Below are positions 1 to 5,841 of a stretch of DNA of 10,708 nt, piece by piece; position 1 is the first letter of the stretch, and each line of letters starts with the position of its first letter. The notes under the pieces are model-generated. The model was not told the DNA's origin and did no database searches. It worked only from the letters and a program-made list of their open reading frames with translations. The translations under genes and the position numbers were made by a program. Source of the DNA: a virus (Duplodnaviria > Heunggongvirae > Uroviricota > Caudoviricetes); the IMG/VR virus record IMGVR_UViG_2690316105_000022, one strand, 5' to 3'.

Positions 1-1539
1 TTATTCAGTCGGCAGTGCTACGCGCCAGGGGAGCAGTTCGCCGACCCGGTTTATCGGCCAGTCGGCTATGACGTCAAGGACATAGCGGAGGTAGCTTTCT
101 GGCTCCACTCCGTTCAGTTTGCACGTCCCGATCAGGCTGTACAGCAGCGCTCCCCGCTCTCCTCCATGATCCGAACCGAAGAACAGGTAGTTTTTGCGGC
201 CCAGACTGACCATCCGCAACGCATTTTCAGCGATGTTATTGTCCGCCTCAGCCCAGCCATCATCTGCATAGTACGTCAGCGCCGGCCACTGGTTCAGGGC
301 GTATGCGAACGCTTTCGCCAGTTCTGAGTGTCGCGACAGGGTTTTCATCTTTTCACGCAGCCAGCTTTCCAGGGATTTCAGCAGCGGTTTCGTTTTCAAC
401 TGACGTTCGGCAAGGCGCTGCTCCGCCGTCATTCCCCTTATCTCTGCCTCGATGGCGTACAGTTCGCCGATCCGTTTCAGCGCTTCCTCCGTCAGGGCTG
501 ACGGGGTGCGAACGTGCACATCGTGGATTTTACGGCGGGCGTGAGCCCAACAGGCGGCTTCCGTTATCCGGCCATCCCGGTACAGCTCGTTGAACCCGGC
601 GTATGCATCCGCCTGCAGTACACCACTGAACCCCGCAAGATGGGTCTGCGGATGGATGCCTTTTCTGTCCGGGCTGTAAGCGAACCACACCGCCGGCGCC
701 AGCGTTGACCCGGCGTTACGGTCGTCACGAACGTAGGTCCATAACCGCCCGGTCTTCGTTTTCTTATTGCCTGGCAACAGCACCGGGACAGGCGTGTCAT
801 CAGCATGGAGCTTACCGTCAGTCAGCACATAGTCCTGAAGCGCTTCTTCCAGCGGTGACAGTAGCCGGCAGCATGCATCCACCCAGCCCGACAGCAGTGA
901 ACGACTCAGCTCCACGCCCTGGCGGCCGTACATTTCAGACTGGCGGTACAGCGGGGTGTGCTCTGCATACTTTGAGATCAGCACGCGGGCCAGCAGCCCC
1001 GGTCCTGCGATACCCCGCTCGATGGGCCGTGAAGGCGCGGGGGCCTGCACGATGGCATCGCACTGAGTACAGGCATGCTTTTCACGTACAGTCCGGATAA
1101 CCCGGAAGGCGCTGCGCATCAGCTCCAGCTGTTCGGCGGCATCCTCACCCAGATAGCTCAGCGAGCCTCCACATTCCGGGCAGCATGACGCTGCCGGCAG
1201 CAGCCGTTTTTCATCGCGGGGGAGTGATTCGGGGAACGGTTTGCGGGTGCGGGTTTGACGCAGCGGGCGCTGCACGGCCGGGTCGTCAACCCGACCGGTA
1301 AGGGTATCACTTTCTTTCTGAAGTGCCTTCAGGTCAGCTTCCATCTGTGCGATACGACGGGAGACTTTTTCCGAGCGGCTGCCGAAGTTCATCCGGCGCA
1401 GCTTATCCAGCTGTGCCTGCAGATGGTCTATTTCGCGTTCACGCTCGTTCAGCTTTTCCTGCAGGGCACGGTTCAGCGCCTCCTGTTCGGCAAGGAGACG
1501 TTTCAGTGCATTGATATCGTCAGGAAGTGAGCTGCTCAT
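1..1539 (-). CDS. tnpC: IS66-family transposase TnpC (Orf3, DDE-type)
   Basis: 512-aa ORF with N-terminal coiled-coil/leucine-zipper-like region, a Cys-rich CCPECGG...CTQCD zinc-finger-like motif and a long catalytic region typical of IS66 Orf3 transposases; follows tnpB after a 48-nt gap. Confidence 0.9.
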
Positions 1540-1587
1540 ACCGGGTATATTACCAGGCTCATTCAGCGTCGACCAGGATAAAGAGGC

Positions 1588-1935
1588 TTACAACATAGTC
1601 AGGGACGTAAGCAGTCTTTTAGGCTGCCGCCAGTCGATACCTTCCAGCAGCATCGCCAGCTGTGCCGGTGTGAGGAACACTTTGCCATCCCGGGCTGACG
1701 GCCAGGCGAAGCGGCCGCGCTCCAGCCGTTTGGTCAGCAGACACAGTCCATCGCCGGTAGACCAGAGGAGCTTTACCTGACTGCCATTACGCCCACGGAA
1801 GATAAAAACGTGACCTGACATCGGATCGTCTTTCAGCGTCGTCTGCACCTTTGCCGCCAGGCCGTTGAAGCCGTTTCTCATATCGGTGATGCCAGCGACC
1901 AGCCAGATCTTTGTCCCTGAGGGTAATGGGATCAA
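1588..1935 (-). CDS. tnpB: IS66-family accessory protein TnpB (Orf2)
   Basis: 115-aa ORF (MIPLPSGTKIWLVAG...DMRNGFNGLAA...) matching the size and conserved N-terminal motif of IS66 Orf2; overlaps tnpA by 4 nt (ATGA). Confidence 0.88.
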   Translation of the reverse strand: MIPLPSGTKIWLVAGITDMRNGFNGLAAKVQTTLKDDPMSGHVFIFRGRNGSQVKLLWSTGDGLCLLTKRLERGRFAWPSARDGKVFLTPAQLAMLLEGIDWRQPKRLLTSLTML

Positions 1936-2336
1936 CGTTTGAGCTCCCGTATCAGCAGGTTCAGGATATTTTCGCTGATGGCACCATTCAGACGGAGTGA
2001 TCCGTGCCGGAACGTCACTTCACAGCTGATATTGAGTGATTCAGGTGTCGCAGCAGCTACAGGTTGTGACCGGGGGGAGGTTGTAGGGACAACATCTTCG
2101 GTATCAAGTGTTATCGGGAGCAGCTCAGGCACGTTGTTTTCTGTTGTTGAAGGAGGACGTAGTTTTCCTTCGCGCCAGTACTGGCGCCACTTGAACAGCA
2201 AATTATCGTTGATCCCATGCTCACGAGCGAGTTGCGCTACGGAGATCTCTGGTCGATGCGAGAGTTCAACCATTTTGATTTTGAACTCAACGGGATAATT
2301 AGGGCTTTTTTTACGCACTGCGGTTAATGATTTCAT
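1932..2336 (-). CDS. tnpA: IS66-family TnpA (Orf1, helix-turn-helix protein)
   Basis: 134-aa ORF first in the IS66 three-gene arrangement; the ISVAQLAREHGINDNLLFKWRQ segment looks like an HTH DNA-binding motif. Confidence 0.85.
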   Translation of the reverse strand: MKSLTAVRKKSPNYPVEFKIKMVELSHRPEISVAQLAREHGINDNLLFKWRQYWREGKLRPPSTTENNVPELLPITLDTEDVVPTTSPRSQPVAAATPESLNISCEVTFRHGSLRLNGAISENILNLLIRELKR

Positions 2337-2389
2337 GGATAGCGTCCACCATATTTGGTGTCCACTATTCTCTCAGGAATTTCAGGATC

Positions 2390-2417
2390 TGCCAGACGGT
2401 GCTGAGACGACGCTTAC
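2390..2417. repeat. Proximal terminal inverted repeat of the IS66-family element
   Basis: Minus-strand reading from 2417 inward gives GTAAGCGTCGTCTCAGCACCGTCTGGCA, beginning with the GTAAGCG motif recalled for IS66-family termini. The exact inner boundary is uncertain because the partner repeat is outside the window. Confidence 0.55.
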
Positions 2418-3145: not shown

Positions 3146-3155
3146 GGGGGTGACG

Positions 3156-3428
3156 ATGGTACATGACCGCATAGCGGAAGAACTCGAAGCGAAAGGATTT
3201 TACCGGAGGGCGGCGGCGCGATGGGGTGAAGTTATGATGCTGGTGGAGACAGACAAGGAACGGCATCACATCACGATGCGACGGCTGGAATGTTCCAGGA
3301 AGGCACAGAGGCCACCGGAGACGGCGGATAATTACGGAGACCTGAAAAAGGCAGTCGATCGCACTTATGCCGAAATGGGGATAGATGGCGCTGGTGATGA
3401 AATATGGCGCAATTACCAGGACAGCTAA
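3156..3428 (+). CDS. Small transcriptional regulator, PerC-family-like (assignment from motif memory)
   Basis: 90-aa ORF starting MVHDRIAEELEAKGFYRRAAARW, resembling the A.ELE..GLWRRAA.RW signature I recall for PerC/Pch-type activators. RBS GAGGGGG is 6 nt upstream of the ATG at 3156; the start region overlaps the ssb stop. Followed by a terminator. Confidence 0.5.
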   Translation: MVHDRIAEELEAKGFYRRAAARWGEVMMLVETDKERHHITMRRLECSRKAQRPPETADNYGDLKKAVDRTYAEMGIDGAGDEIWRNYQDS

Positions 3429-3434
3429 TCACAC

Positions 3435-3458
3435 AGCCGGAGAAATCCGGCTTTTTTT
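3435..3458 (+). terminator. Rho-independent terminator after the PerC-like gene
   Basis: Perfect 7-bp stem AGCCGGA / TCCGGCT with GAAA tetraloop, followed by TTTTTT. Confidence 0.7.
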
Positions 3459-3788: not shown

Positions 3789-3820
3789 AGCCGGAGCAAT
3801 CCGGCTTTTTGTTATTTTTT
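3789..3820 (+). terminator. Rho-independent terminator after the small ORF, near-duplicate of the terminator at 3435
   Basis: Stem AGCCGGA / TCCGGCT with GCAA tetraloop, followed by TTTTTGTTATTTTTT. The core ACAGCCGGAG[A/C]AATCCGGCTTTTT is shared with the terminator at 3431-3457. Confidence 0.7.
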
Positions 3821-3829
3821 GTAAATTAT

Positions 3830-3877
3830 TTGTTCGTGGTTGTTCCACGTTGTTCACTGAGCGGATCGGCATATTTT
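3830..3877 (+). promoter_or_regulatory. Phased TTGTTC triple direct repeat with possible sigma70-like promoter for the capsid operon
   Basis: TTGTTC occurs at 3830, 3840 and 3850, exactly 10 bp apart (TTGTTCgtggTTGTTCcacgTTGTTCactg). The third copy could serve as a -35 element, with TATTTT at 3872-3877 as a -10 after a 16-nt spacer. No transcription start data. Confidence 0.3.
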
Positions 3878-3931
3878 ACCCGAACTGAATCATGATTATT
3901 CTCGCCAGTGGTGCCAGGACGCTGGGGCCAC

Positions 3932-3979
3932 TTTCCCGCCTGTTAATGTGCTCACCAATATTCATTACCAGGCGGGAAA
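3932..3979. repeat. Long imperfect palindrome (17-bp arms, 14-nt spacer) in the capsid leader
   Basis: Left arm TTTCCCGCCTGTTAATG (3932-3948) and right arm CATTACCAGGCGGGAAA (3963-3979) are reverse complements with one mismatch. Confidence 0.6.
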
Positions 3980-4032
3980 ACGATCGGTGCGATTGCTGAT
4001 TTCCTTATGAAAAACGGTTGAGTTTTTACCGC

Positions 4033-4070
4033 GTCCTGGAGTTCCTTACTTAACCCCAGGACTTTTTTTT
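4033..4070 (+). terminator. Terminator-like hairpin plus T8 tract immediately abutting the capsid start codon
   Basis: Stem GTCCTGG (4033-4039) / CCAGGAC (4056-4062) with a 16-nt loop, followed by TTTTTTTT (4063-4070); the capsid ATG begins at 4071. The loop is long for an efficient intrinsic terminator, so function is uncertain. Confidence 0.4.
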
Positions 4071-5228
4071 ATGCCGAGAATAATCGAATTACGCCAGCAG
4101 AAAACCGCCATTAAAAATCAGATGCGCGACATGCTGGAGAACGCGGAAAAAGAAAACCGCAGCCTTAACGATGCAGAGGGCGCAAAATTTGACGAATTAC
4201 GCGCTAAAGCTGAATCCCTCGATAAAGACATTTCCCGCCTTGAAGCCATTGCAGACGAAGAGCGCAGCAAGCCAGGTAAAAGCAGCCAGACCACTGACCA
4301 GGCAGAACTCCGAAACTACATCCTGACAGGTGAAACCCGTGCATTAAGTACAGGTGTCCCCGCTGATGGTGGTTATACCGTTATCCCTGAACTGAACACC
4401 GAAATCATGCGAATACTGGCGGATGAGTCCACCATGCGCCGCATCTGTACCGTGAAAAAAATCAGCAGCAACGAGTTTAAGCAGCTTGTTTCCGCTGGCG
4501 GTGCGACCGTTAACCTCGGTGAAGAGGGTAAGGCACGCGAACAGACCAGCACCCCGCAGATTAACGAGGTGAGCATCAAGCTGTATCCGGTCTATGCGTA
4601 CCCGCGCACCACGCAGGAAATCGTGGATTTTTCCGATGTGGACATCCTTTCATGGCTGACGGGCGAGATTGGCGACACCTTCACGGAAACCGAAGAAAGC
4701 GATCTGGTTGTGGGCGACGGTGACAAAAAAGCAAAAGGCTTTTTATCCGTACCCCGTGCAGAGAAGAACGACAAAGAACGTGATTTTGGTACGTTGCAGG
4801 TAATTAAGCCTTCTGAGTCTCTTGCGTGGACATCTGCGGACCCGCTGATCGATCTGAAATTTGCATTACGTAAAAAATACCGCAAGAACGCGGTATGGGT
4901 GGTTAACTCCACGACGGCGGCAAAACTCCAGAAGGTGAAGAATGCGAACGGGGATTATATATGGCGTGACCGTTTACAGGCGGGTGATCCTGACACATTG
5001 CTGGGCCTTCCGGTCGAATATCTGGAGTTTATGCCGGATAACGTTATTGCCCTGGGTGACTTCAAACGCGGTTACTACATTGTTGATCACGAAACGGGTG
5101 TTCGCACCAGACCGGACAACCTGACAGAACCAGGATTCATCAAAATTTTCACGCAGAAATATTTAGGCGGTGGCGTGGTGGATTCGAACGCGATCAAGAT
5201 TCTGGAACTGCCACAGGACGACGATTAA
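4071..5228 (+). CDS. Major capsid protein, HK97-fold family, with N-terminal coiled-coil (delta/scaffolding-like) domain
   Basis: 385-aa ORF. The first ~70 residues are a charged, coiled-coil-like region (ELRQQKTAIKNQMRDMLENAEKENRSLNDAEGAKFDELRAKAESLDKDISRLEAIADEE) typical of HK97-type delta domains; the remainder has the size and motif feel of HK97-family capsid proteins. Sits directly upstream of a prohead protease and portal. Confidence 0.88.
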   Translation: MPRIIELRQQKTAIKNQMRDMLENAEKENRSLNDAEGAKFDELRAKAESLDKDISRLEAIADEERSKPGKSSQTTDQAELRNYILTGETRALSTGVPADGGYTVIPELNTEIMRILADESTMRRICTVKKISSNEFKQLVSAGGATVNLGEEGKAREQTSTPQINEVSIKLYPVYAYPRTTQEIVDFSDVDILSWLTGEIGDTFTETEESDLVVGDGDKKAKGFLSVPRAEKNDKERDFGTLQVIKPSESLAWTSADPLIDLKFALRKKYRKNAVWVVNSTTAAKLQKVKNANGDYIWRDRLQAGDPDTLLGLPVEYLEFMPDNVIALGDFKRGYYIVDHETGVRTRPDNLTEPGFIKIFTQKYLGGGVVDSNAIKILELPQDDD

Positions 5229-5238
5229 CAGCATACAG

Positions 5239-5269
5239 AAGGGGCTAAAAAGCCCCTTTAGTGTTTTAT
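5239..5269 (+). terminator. Hairpin with interrupted T tract after the capsid gene (possible partial terminator)
   Basis: 8-bp stem AAGGGGCT / AGCCCCTT with AAAA loop (5239-5258), followed by TAGTGTTTT. Confidence 0.45.
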
Positions 5270-5283
5270 GGGTGAAAAAAATT

Positions 5284-5841
5284 ATGAAGAGTATGGAAAT
5301 CCGGTCATCGGAAATCACCACCAGCGCCAGCAACACGCTGACGGGTTACGTTGTTCGCTGGAATAACCTTTCTGATCTGCTATGGGGTGAGTTTTACGAA
5401 AAATTTCAGCGGGGGGCGTTTACTGAGTGGCTTGCGGCGGGTAATGACGTTCGCGGCCTGTATGAGCATGACCACAGCATGTTACTGGGGCGCACCCGTT
5501 CCGGATCGCTGAAACTGGAAGAGGACGACACAGGGTTACGCTTTGAACTGACGCCACCGGATACCAGTACAGGGCGGGACGTTATCGAACTGGTTAAGCG
5601 TGGTGATATATCCGGCATGAGCTTTGGCTTTCGTTCCCGTAAGGATGTATGGGATACCACAACAGATCCATGCGTGCGCACTGTGCTGGTTGCGGAACTG
5701 TACGAAATTACCGTCACATCCGTACCGGCTTACCCTGATTCCGGCGTGGAGCTGGCCCGCCGTTCCCTGTACGAGCAGCACCCCGAAAAAATGCCGCGTG
5801 CGGATAATCGCCGCTGGTGGGCGGATTTAGCGGGGGTGTGA
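5284..5841 (+). CDS. Prohead maturation protease, HK97 family (S78/U35-like)
   Basis: The ORF contains LTGYVVRWN...GAF...DVRGLYEHDHSMLLGRTRSGSLKLEEDDTGLRFEL..P.T..GRDVIELVKRGDISGMSFGFR...TVPAYPDSGVEL, closely resembling HK97-type prohead protease motifs as I recall them. Start chosen at the ATG at 5284, downstream of the capsid stop; the track's 5170 start would overlap the capsid gene. Confidence 0.82.
   Translation: MKSMEIRSSEITTSASNTLTGYVVRWNNLSDLLWGEFYEKFQRGAFTEWLAAGNDVRGLYEHDHSMLLGRTRSGSLKLEEDDTGLRFELTPPDTSTGRDVIELVKRGDISGMSFGFRSRKDVWDTTTDPCVRTVLVAELYEITVTSVPAYPDSGVELARRSLYEQHPEKMPRADNRRWWADLAGV

Follow-up and report, generated by a model that had tools for sequence, protein, structure and literature searches.

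The hairpin and the run of eight T residues directly ahead of the major capsid gene form a conserved, functional-looking structure. This hairpin (SL3) is the last of three stem-loops in a conserved, folded, untranslated leader of approximately 160 nt. Our preferred explanation, which we hold tentatively, is a cis-acting leader gate. The hairpin would sequester the ribosome binding site of the capsid gene, and in this lineage the U-tract would probably add a leaky terminator, with a possible built-in alternative pairing and a promoter driven by AlpA.

The window is the whole stretch of DNA that was analysed, 10,708 nucleotides in length, and all positions refer to it. It is an EcCIEDL933-like capsid-forming phage satellite (cf-PICI) that was truncated upstream by an IS66 element. 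Three IS66-family transposase genes occupy positions 1-2336, and the satellite homology starts at approximately 2418. The satellite part encodes SSB, PerC, a small protein (phrog_1957), an HK97-type major capsid protein, a prohead protease, a portal, head closure and adaptor proteins (connectors), HNH, TerS and TerL. The set from capsid to TerL, lacking any genes for tails or lysis, is that of a cf-PICI. An O157:H7 element is 97-99% identical to the window and also carries int, alpA and a DUF927 primase gene, all on one strand. The genes of the element are unidirectional, and several terminator-like hairpins lie between its modules. EcCIEDL933 is the published prototype of the family; its alpA is required for induction, which is abolished in an alpA mutant (bioRxiv 10.1101/2022.09.08.507074). 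cf-PICIs make their own DNA-filled capsids even without a helper, and filled tail-less capsids without an inducing helper have been reported for EcCIEDL933 and the related Klebsiella cf-PICI KpCIDSM30104 (bioRxiv 10.1101/2025.02.11.637232). The capsid gene and the terminator-like structures around it are as follows.

3789-3811, + strand: canonical intrinsic terminator with a 7-bp stem, a GCAA tetraloop and a T-rich tail, ending the upstream unit.
4071-5228, + strand: major capsid protein gene (HK97 fold), first gene of the packaging operon.
5238-5269, + strand: terminator-like hairpin just 3′ of the capsid gene, with a 9-bp stem, a 4-nt loop and a weak T tail.

The terminator at 3789-3811 is a near-twin of the terminator at 3435-3458. 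The capsid open reading frame encodes 385 aa and matched Pfam Phage_capsid with E = 3e-61. Its start at ATG 4071 matched the RefSeq annotation in relatives, and N-terminal conservation was found from residue 6 onward. The assignment of the capsid start is correct. Three features lie directly before it.

4033-4062, + strand: SL3, a 7-bp stem with a 16-nt loop, identified by reading the sequence and by folding.
4058-4061, + strand: AGGA, the sole Shine-Dalgarno-like element of the capsid gene, within the 3′ arm of SL3.
4063-4070, + strand: T8 tract, which is both the U-tract of the terminator-like structure and the spacer from the Shine-Dalgarno-like element to the AUG.

The arms of SL3 are GTCCTGG (4033-4039) and CCAGGAC (4056-4062), the loop occupies positions 4040-4055, and five of the seven base pairs of the stem are G-C. 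An inner 3-bp helix was predicted in the loop, which leaves 8 nt open. The T8 tract is contiguous with the stem on its 5′ side and with the capsid ATG (4071-4073) on its 3′ side. As the initial annotation had stated, no promoter would fit between the hairpin and the ATG; the T run abuts the start codon. It had also recognized the anatomy of a terminator here, and stem, stability and T8 are indeed all present. The RNA fold of 4025-4075 had an energy of -14.1 kcal/mol; shuffles averaged -5.5 (z = -4.6), and none of the 200 was as stable. SL3 together with T8 is real and beyond chance.

Intrinsic terminators have a G+C-rich stem of approximately 5-14 bp, a loop that is usually 3-8 nt long and a U-tract of at least 6 abutting the stem. 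The stem of SL3 (7 bp, -12.7 kcal/mol for SL3 alone) falls within this range, and T8 begins at the first base after the stem. In stability, SL3 equals the three canonical tetraloop terminators of the element, whose energies were -12.0, -12.0 and -14.1 kcal/mol. The loop of 16 nt is beyond the usual length, a point that the initial annotation had raised and that was borne out; the consensus terminator scan, which allowed loops of 3-8 nt, did not list SL3. T8 is the longest T run of the window (10.7 kb). Three T runs of at least 7 were found on the + strand of the window: two lie within the satellite, each 3′ of a G+C-rich hairpin, and the third (2306-2312) belongs to the IS66 part. A terminator for the minus strand at SL3 was ruled out, there being no T run 3′ of the hairpin on that strand.

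The leaders of relatives were compared after sampling loci from one genome per species, viral contigs and metagenomes. The data comprised 121 distinct leaders upstream of homologous capsid genes, namely 30 of type A, the lineage of the window, and 91 of type B. Both arms of SL3 and a T7 or T8 tract were kept in 30/30 distinct type A leaders, the T run being T7 in 21 and T8 in 9, with no other length. In two type A leaders (L055 and L088) whose capsids are 69% identical, the arms, T8 and the start region were intact and the loop sequence had diverged. Changes that break the stem of SL3 were found as three single variants (L015, L038 and L052), of which L038 carries G4059T. The type B leaders, with capsids 62-75% identical, carry a hairpin of the form TGGTTTC-N23-GAAACCA that ends 4-5 nt before the ATG. 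None of these 91 leaders has a T tract, and the longest T run in their last 25 nt was 2. The 5′ arm of SL3 in the window (CGTCCTG) and the 5′ part of the loop in type B are homologous.

Because the 91 type B hairpins lack a T tract and their GGA is equally spaced from the start codon, the hairpin appears to share a role at the ribosome site, and the U-tract appears to be specific to one lineage. As judged from this comparison, the ribosome-site hairpin is a family-wide feature and the U-tract is a derived feature of a single lineage. Among 50,697 phage records, none matched the type A leader and three matched the type B leader: a 16.5-kb "induced prophage" resembling a cf-PICI, an unannotated fragment of 3.8 kb and a 106-kb Klebsiella phage record. 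A search against Rfam gave no match in the window at E up to 1, and the matches in four relatives were at chance level and all outside the leader.

The ribosome site of the capsid gene is embedded in this hairpin. The duplex with the anti-Shine-Dalgarno sequence had an energy of -4.0 kcal/mol, with CAGGAC as the pairing segment, 8 nt before the ATG. It was the second weakest among the ten starts of the window that were checked, and only that of TerS (-1.9) was weaker. In type B leaders, too, the 3′ arm of the hairpin contains a GGA/GAG that is equally spaced from the ATG. In the window leader, the pairing probability of SL3 at equilibrium was 1.0. A ribosome binding site paired in a stable local hairpin, which is what a sequestering structure consists of, is thus present in SL3, and the Shine-Dalgarno element itself is weak. 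AGGA or GGA lies inside the 3′ arm, and therefore SL3 would limit ribosome access in both leader types. For the most abundant protein of the virion, such a weak and strongly sequestered Shine-Dalgarno element is unexpected. The initial annotation had overlooked the Shine-Dalgarno-like element in the 3′ arm, the conserved structured leader and the 91 sister hairpins without T tracts.

The relatives share a common order of elements upstream of the capsid gene, which runs from an AT-rich motif through three direct repeats and a promoter-like site to SL1, SL2, a linker, SL3 and the ATG. Upstream of the linker, they are placed in the window as follows.

3817-3830, + strand: AT-rich 14-mer TTTTGTAAATTATT, identical in the window and in 45/63 of the first loci fetched.
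3830-3859, + strand: three TTGTTC direct repeats in exact 10-bp phase, approximately -79 to -50 from the predicted start, a candidate AlpA array.
3875-3902, + strand: predicted weak sigma-70-type promoter of the capsid operon, with -35 TTTACC (3875-3880), a 16-bp spacer and -10 TATTCT (3897-3902).
3908-3931, + strand: SL1, a stem-loop with a GACG loop at the predicted 5′ end of the transcript, found by folding.
3932-3979, + strand: SL2, a long stem-loop, variable in sequence and conserved in structure, found by folding.

Region 3807-4100 folded with z = -4.3. The evidence for SL1 and SL2 as RNA structures comes from 53 type B leaders. The type B helix homologous to SL1 was 99.8% paired with two compensatory pairs. 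In type B SL2, 8/9 pairs showed changes on both sides, and 97% of the cells were paired. Taken together, 10 pairs of SL1 and SL2 had changed on both sides, and 0/500 shuffles reached the observed values. The covariation signal was lost when the partner columns were slid. SL3 itself showed no compensatory changes; in the 53 type B leaders, too, no covariation was seen, and its arms are conserved in sequence.

In almost every relative, the 10-nt core of the 14-mer, TTGTAAATTA, precedes the capsid ATG by approximately 215-255 nt; TTTTGTAAATTATT may be a promoter-upstream element. A promoter scan of the intergenic region in two relatives (L012 and L086) gave TTTACA-16-TAT(G/C)TT as the sole candidate, and this site is homologous to that of the window. 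The window promoter has 8/12 matches and lies under the scan threshold. The T, the A and the final two T of the -10 element were invariant in 53 relatives. From this site, the transcript is predicted to start near 3908, the first base of SL1, which would give a leader of approximately 160 nt. The initial annotation had placed the transcript start upstream of the hairpin, and the conserved promoter-like site approximately 170 nt upstream supports that part; the leader would be approximately 160 nt rather than the 180-200 nt that it had given.

The repeats upstream of the promoter point to AlpA. Phased direct repeats are sites bound by Xis-like proteins, such as lambda Xis and P2 Cox. The AlpA of these satellites is a 62-aa, Xis-like protein, and the one solved structure to which it is related is that of an AlpA-family regulator. 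In a complete relative (L011), the 25-nt TTGTTC array recurs in inverted orientation between int and alpA, and strain UMNF18 has similar repeat arrays immediately before int. When further copies of the arrays were sought with BLAST, L011 alone yielded a long one. Arrays and proteins were compared by a test of distance correlation instead. That test used 63/80 complete type B elements, which have near-identical capsids and 38 different arrays. The identity of the array followed that of AlpA (Spearman 0.70; 0/300 permutations). No such correlation was seen for the adjacent 86-aa gene (0.06) and for the primase (0.13); the integrase gave 0.41. Variants of the AlpA recognition helix matched the array types in all but a few cases. 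This evidence linking AlpA to the repeats is correlative. We infer that AlpA directly activates the capsid promoter through the direct repeats, and the main control of the operon is more likely such promoter activation through the AlpA-tracking repeats.

The 5′ arm of SL3 has a second possible partner in the leader, which is the top of SL1.

4031-4039, + strand: 5′ arm of SL3 plus two bases (GCGTCCTGG; also GCGUCCUGG), able to pair with 4056-4062 (SL3) or with 3914-3922 (top of SL1).

The sequence CCAGGACGC (3914-3922) within SL1 is complementary to 4031-4039. The two segments form a perfect Watson-Crick run of 9 bp, and 1/2000 shuffles of the leader tail reached 9 bp. This longest-run statistic was used in place of RNAduplex energies of SL1 against the tail, which were noisy (p 0.015 to 0.13 for four representatives). 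The first seven of the nine bases in CCAGGACGC recur as the 3′ arm of SL3. One arm of the hairpin can therefore take part in mutually exclusive pairings, as in an attenuator. Type B leaders have an equivalent helix, AGACGUGAG with UUCACGUCU, of 8-9 bp, at the same place (-40 to -29) and with a different sequence. It was 97% paired in 53 leaders and showed a single compensatory pair, in one lineage (L096 and L114), a count that was equalled by 45/500 shuffles.

The folding predictions depend on the length of the transcript. For nascent window RNA ending at 4039-4050, the long-range helix was the minimum-energy pairing. In the full-length window leader, SL1 and SL3 together were better than the alternative by approximately 10 kcal/mol, and the equilibrium probability of the alternative was zero. 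In the diverged type A leader L055, the long-range helix was the predicted equilibrium fold (P = 0.97). Since the alternative is not favored at equilibrium in the window, a switch would need kinetics or a factor. A search for a sensor, which covered leader peptides, ligand pockets and Rfam matches, found none. SL2 has no conserved unpaired core and thus no ligand pocket. Leader-peptide attenuation was rejected: the upstream ATG at 3893 overlaps the predicted -10 element, is replaced in many relatives (e.g., GATCCATATC) and precedes the predicted start, so that no leader peptide is expected. The layout is that of an attenuator with a built-in antiterminator; the evidence for a switch is moderate only, and the alternative pairing may be in use.

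In the leader gate that we prefer, AlpA bound to the three phased TTGTTC repeats (3830-3859) would switch on the weak promoter, and transcription would start near 3908. SL3, folded over AGGA (4058-4061), would limit the access of ribosomes to the capsid gene. In the EcCIEDL933 lineage, the U7-8 behind SL3 would make some polymerases stop at approximately 4069-4071 and release a leader RNA of approximately 160 nt. We infer both that termination takes place at T8 and how efficient it would be. SL3 would then be a double damper of transcription and translation, by which leaky promoter activity is kept from yielding capsid protein. Pairing of 4031-4039 with 3914-3922 would block both the terminator and the sequestration of the ribosome site. 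A bolder version, which we consider possible but doubtful, is that the 160-nt leader represents an undescribed, cf-PICI-specific family of cis-regulatory RNA. The top of SL1 and the 3′ arm of SL3 would compete for 4031-4039, and this competition would respond to a factor and set read-through and ribosome access together. Leaders released by termination could also survive as a small RNA that carries a hairpin and a U-tail.

The weak Shine-Dalgarno element, the spacing conserved in both leader types and the hairpins of the 91 sister leaders, which lack the U-tract, are consistent with a purely translational role. By that account, no termination occurs in vivo, and the hairpin and U-tract serve translation or mRNA stability, the U-rich spacer being a landing site for S1/30S and the hairpin the 5′ boundary of an open initiation region. 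A long loop is poor for termination, the capsid protein is needed in large amounts, and E. coli rnd provides a case of a G+C-rich hairpin and T8 shortly before a start codon. However, the perfect U7-8 behind a hairpin of -12.7 kcal/mol matches the real terminators of the element, the Shine-Dalgarno sequence of rnd lies 3′ of the U-tract and not inside the stem, and the replacement of the arms by a copy of SL1 sequence is left unexplained. We regard this account as unlikely, although it is to be taken seriously. A constitutive partial terminator that acts as an insulator, with no switch, seems more unlikely still. It would trim upstream read-through and basal promoter activity and would be outrun by strong AlpA-driven initiation. 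Such an insulator would agree with the terminator anatomy, with the SL3 probability of 1.0 at equilibrium, with the several terminator-like hairpins between the modules of unidirectional genes and with capsids formed without a helper factor (bioRxiv 10.1101/2025.02.11.637232). Yet the canonical terminator at 3789-3811 already lies upstream of the promoter, and neither the conserved complementarity of SL1 and SL3 nor the hairpin in lineages without a U-tract is explained.

The initial annotation had drawn an analogy with the late genes of phage lambda, in which RNA polymerase passes the hairpin with the help of a dedicated protein antiterminator; the candidates here would be helper Q, PerC or AlpA. 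The layout of promoter, approximately 160-nt leader, terminator-like hairpin and late genes does fit, as do the several terminator-like hairpins in a one-directional gene array. Nevertheless, the analogy lost ground at each candidate protein. No Q-like protein was matched among the window ORFs scanned against Pfam or PHROGs, and no Q-like gene is present in the RefSeq annotation of the complete relative L011, where several small proteins are unannotated. Since capsid production without a helper has been reported, an antiterminator encoded by the helper is not required (bioRxiv 10.1101/2025.02.11.637232), although this had been raised as a possibility. The PerC-like protein that had been suggested as a regulator is not conserved with the leader: it is absent from one element of the same leader family (L002) and replaced by a ProQ/FinO-family gene in another (L012), and PerC was rejected as a candidate. 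The AlpA of Pseudomonas is a proven antiterminator, a larger protein with a Q21-like fold (PMC7969949, PMC9371919). It was rejected as a model for the 62-aa, Xis-like AlpA of PICIs, which is unrelated; the shared name is a coincidence. Type B leaders, moreover, have no terminator to be passed. A lambda-like module with a protein antiterminator is improbable.

Another candidate regulator, the 74-aa phrog_1957 encoded just upstream, is conserved beside the leader in three lineages. It was rejected, being missing in PCN033-type elements that keep the leader. Its sequence did not track the repeat array (0.06), it had no match in Pfam, NCBIfam or PDB, and its single-sequence structure model (pLDDT 58) was too poor for a fold search. 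Finally, the feature might act at the DNA level. A DNA-binding protein would then use the CCAGGAC copies at 3914, 4033 (inverted) and 4056 as operators, and the RNA hairpin would be a by-product. The window contains 8 copies of CCAGGAC where 1.09 would be expected, and two inverted motif copies changed together between lineages, which would suit an operator and an RNA pairing equally. The compensatory changes in SL1 and SL2 are of the RNA type, however; 5/8 of the copies lie in coding sequence and are explicable by codon bias, and the T tract would have no explanation. We consider operator sites highly improbable, the least probable of the explanations weighed here.

cf-PICIs spread between species through their own DNA-filled capsids, and the literature searched contained no description of the control of their capsid operon. 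The control region is now placed: it consists of an AlpA-linked repeat array, a weak promoter and a conserved, structured leader. The last hairpin of this leader lies over the capsid ribosome binding site and resembles a terminator in the EcCIEDL933 lineage. If the leader is a real gate, it would set the level of spontaneous capsid production and hence the transfer frequency of these elements. Engineered PICI delivery vehicles would then have in it a compact control element. Should the structure be no more than leaky, the finding is an ordinary one.

The late leader of phage lambda, with pR', 6S RNA, tR' and Q, has the same layout as this region, in which a promoter and a short untranslated leader lead to a terminator-like hairpin ahead of the structural genes. 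Unlike in lambda, no Q gene was found here, and neither a Q-binding element nor a sigma-dependent pause signal was seen; no TAnnnT-like hexamer was seen on reading 3908-3932 (GTGGTGCCAGGACGCTGGGGCCAC), downstream of a transcript start that is itself predicted. The terminator here abuts the start codon and contains the Shine-Dalgarno-like element, expression occurs without a helper phage, and sister lineages lack the U-tract. The leader of HK022 has the put RNA, a cis-acting antiterminator that likewise consists of two adjacent stem-loops just after the transcript start, upstream of terminator-like hairpins. When putL and putR were folded, they had no sequence resemblance or evident structural resemblance to the leader, and a put-like RNA was rejected.

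The 5′ region of E. coli rnd (RNase D) also has a G+C-rich hairpin and T8 shortly before the start codon and looks like a terminator. Zhang and Deutscher are said to have found, in PNAS in 1992, that the U-tract of rnd is needed for translation and not for termination. In rnd the U-tract is 24 nt from the UUG start and the Shine-Dalgarno sequence is 3′ of it, whereas here the stem contains the Shine-Dalgarno-like element, and the U-tract separates it from the AUG. For the promoter, the closest parallel in the comparison is P2 Cox, which activates the late promoter PLL of satellite P4. This small protein is Xis-like, and the phased direct repeats to which it binds lie in the attachment region and also upstream of a late promoter of a satellite. 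In the present element, the protein would instead be the satellite's own AlpA, as the covariation of AlpA with the repeats and the copies beside int suggest.

Leader attenuators and riboswitch platforms share with this leader a strand (here 4031-4039) that has two possible partners; pairing with one of them forms a terminator and conceals the ribosome site. As in riboswitch classes, where control is sometimes of transcription and sometimes of translation, the related leaders here occur with or without a U-tract. The present leader differs from those known systems in that no sensor was found, that it has no leader peptide and no ligand pocket, and that the alternative is unfavored at equilibrium in the window. 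Overall, the finding adds a further case to a known type of leader control and suggests a family of leader RNAs that Rfam does not contain.

Phased 10-bp direct-repeat arrays were found at two places, upstream of the capsid promoter and adjoining int, at the following locations:

Window 3830-3859: array
L011 (a complete relative) 150-197: array
L226 (another relative locus) 5413-5502: array
L145-L224 (further relative loci): arrays

The sequence type of the array follows that of AlpA, the 62-aa Xis-like protein of the satellite, which is encoded approximately 6 kb away (Spearman 0.70). This placement, together with the tracking of AlpA, suggests that AlpA serves both as excision factor and as activator of the capsid operon. 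A 14-mer, TTTTGTAAATTATT, lies at window 3817-3830 and was the same in 45 of the 63 loci fetched first. Its 10-nt core, TTGTAAATTA, is kept in nearly all relatives, and the neighbouring repeats vary freely. Compared by eye, the 14-mer matched neither the IHF consensus, the CRP consensus nor a promoter hexamer pair.

The small protein gene phrog_1957, just upstream of the leader, is flanked by two near-identical tetraloop terminators (window 3435-3458 and 3789-3811) with the sequence AGCCGGAG[A/C]AATCCGGCT followed by a T run. Elements like that of E. coli PCN033 (L225) lack precisely this gene, as would be expected of recombination between the twin hairpins.

In the divergent type A relative L055 (2829-3012), which belongs to the hairpin-plus-T-tract lineage of the window, the outer stem of the first leader stem-loop, SL1, is weakened. 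The predicted equilibrium fold of this leader is the long-range pairing between SL1 and SL3, the stem-loop before the capsid ATG, with a predicted probability of P = 0.97, and not the terminator hairpin. Since L055 favours the long-range pairing, the balance between the two folds would differ between sublineages. A further hairpin, of 9 bp with a weak T tail, stands immediately 3' of the capsid gene (window 5238-5269); a role as partial terminator, fixing how strongly the capsid gene is expressed relative to those downstream, is possible.

The motif CCAGGAC occurs eight times in the window, against 1.09 copies expected from shuffles. Three of the eight copies are in the leader, and the five in coding sequence may be explained by codon bias.

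CCAGGAC copies lie at 2885, 3416, 3914, 4033, 4056, 6622, 7343 and 10212

An IS66-family element is inserted into the satellite at window 1-2417, with these genes:

1-1539, minus strand: tnpC
1588-1935, minus strand: tnpB
1932-2336, minus strand: tnpA

Homology to intact capsid-forming satellites begins only at about 2418, past this element, which indicates that the int/alpA/primase part is displaced or lost in the window copy. The IS66-satellite junction was found in no genome of the E. coli collection.

In the type B locus L012 (E. coli UMNF18), a ProQ/FinO-family RNA chaperone gene (1634-2176) lies just upstream of the structured leader, in the slot where other elements have PerC. For the PerC-family protein of the window (3153-3425), the ANR anti-activator family also gave a match that was weak and below threshold (E = 4e-4). 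A repressor role has been suggested in print for a PICI PerC-like protein (PMC11773190), and the match echoes this.
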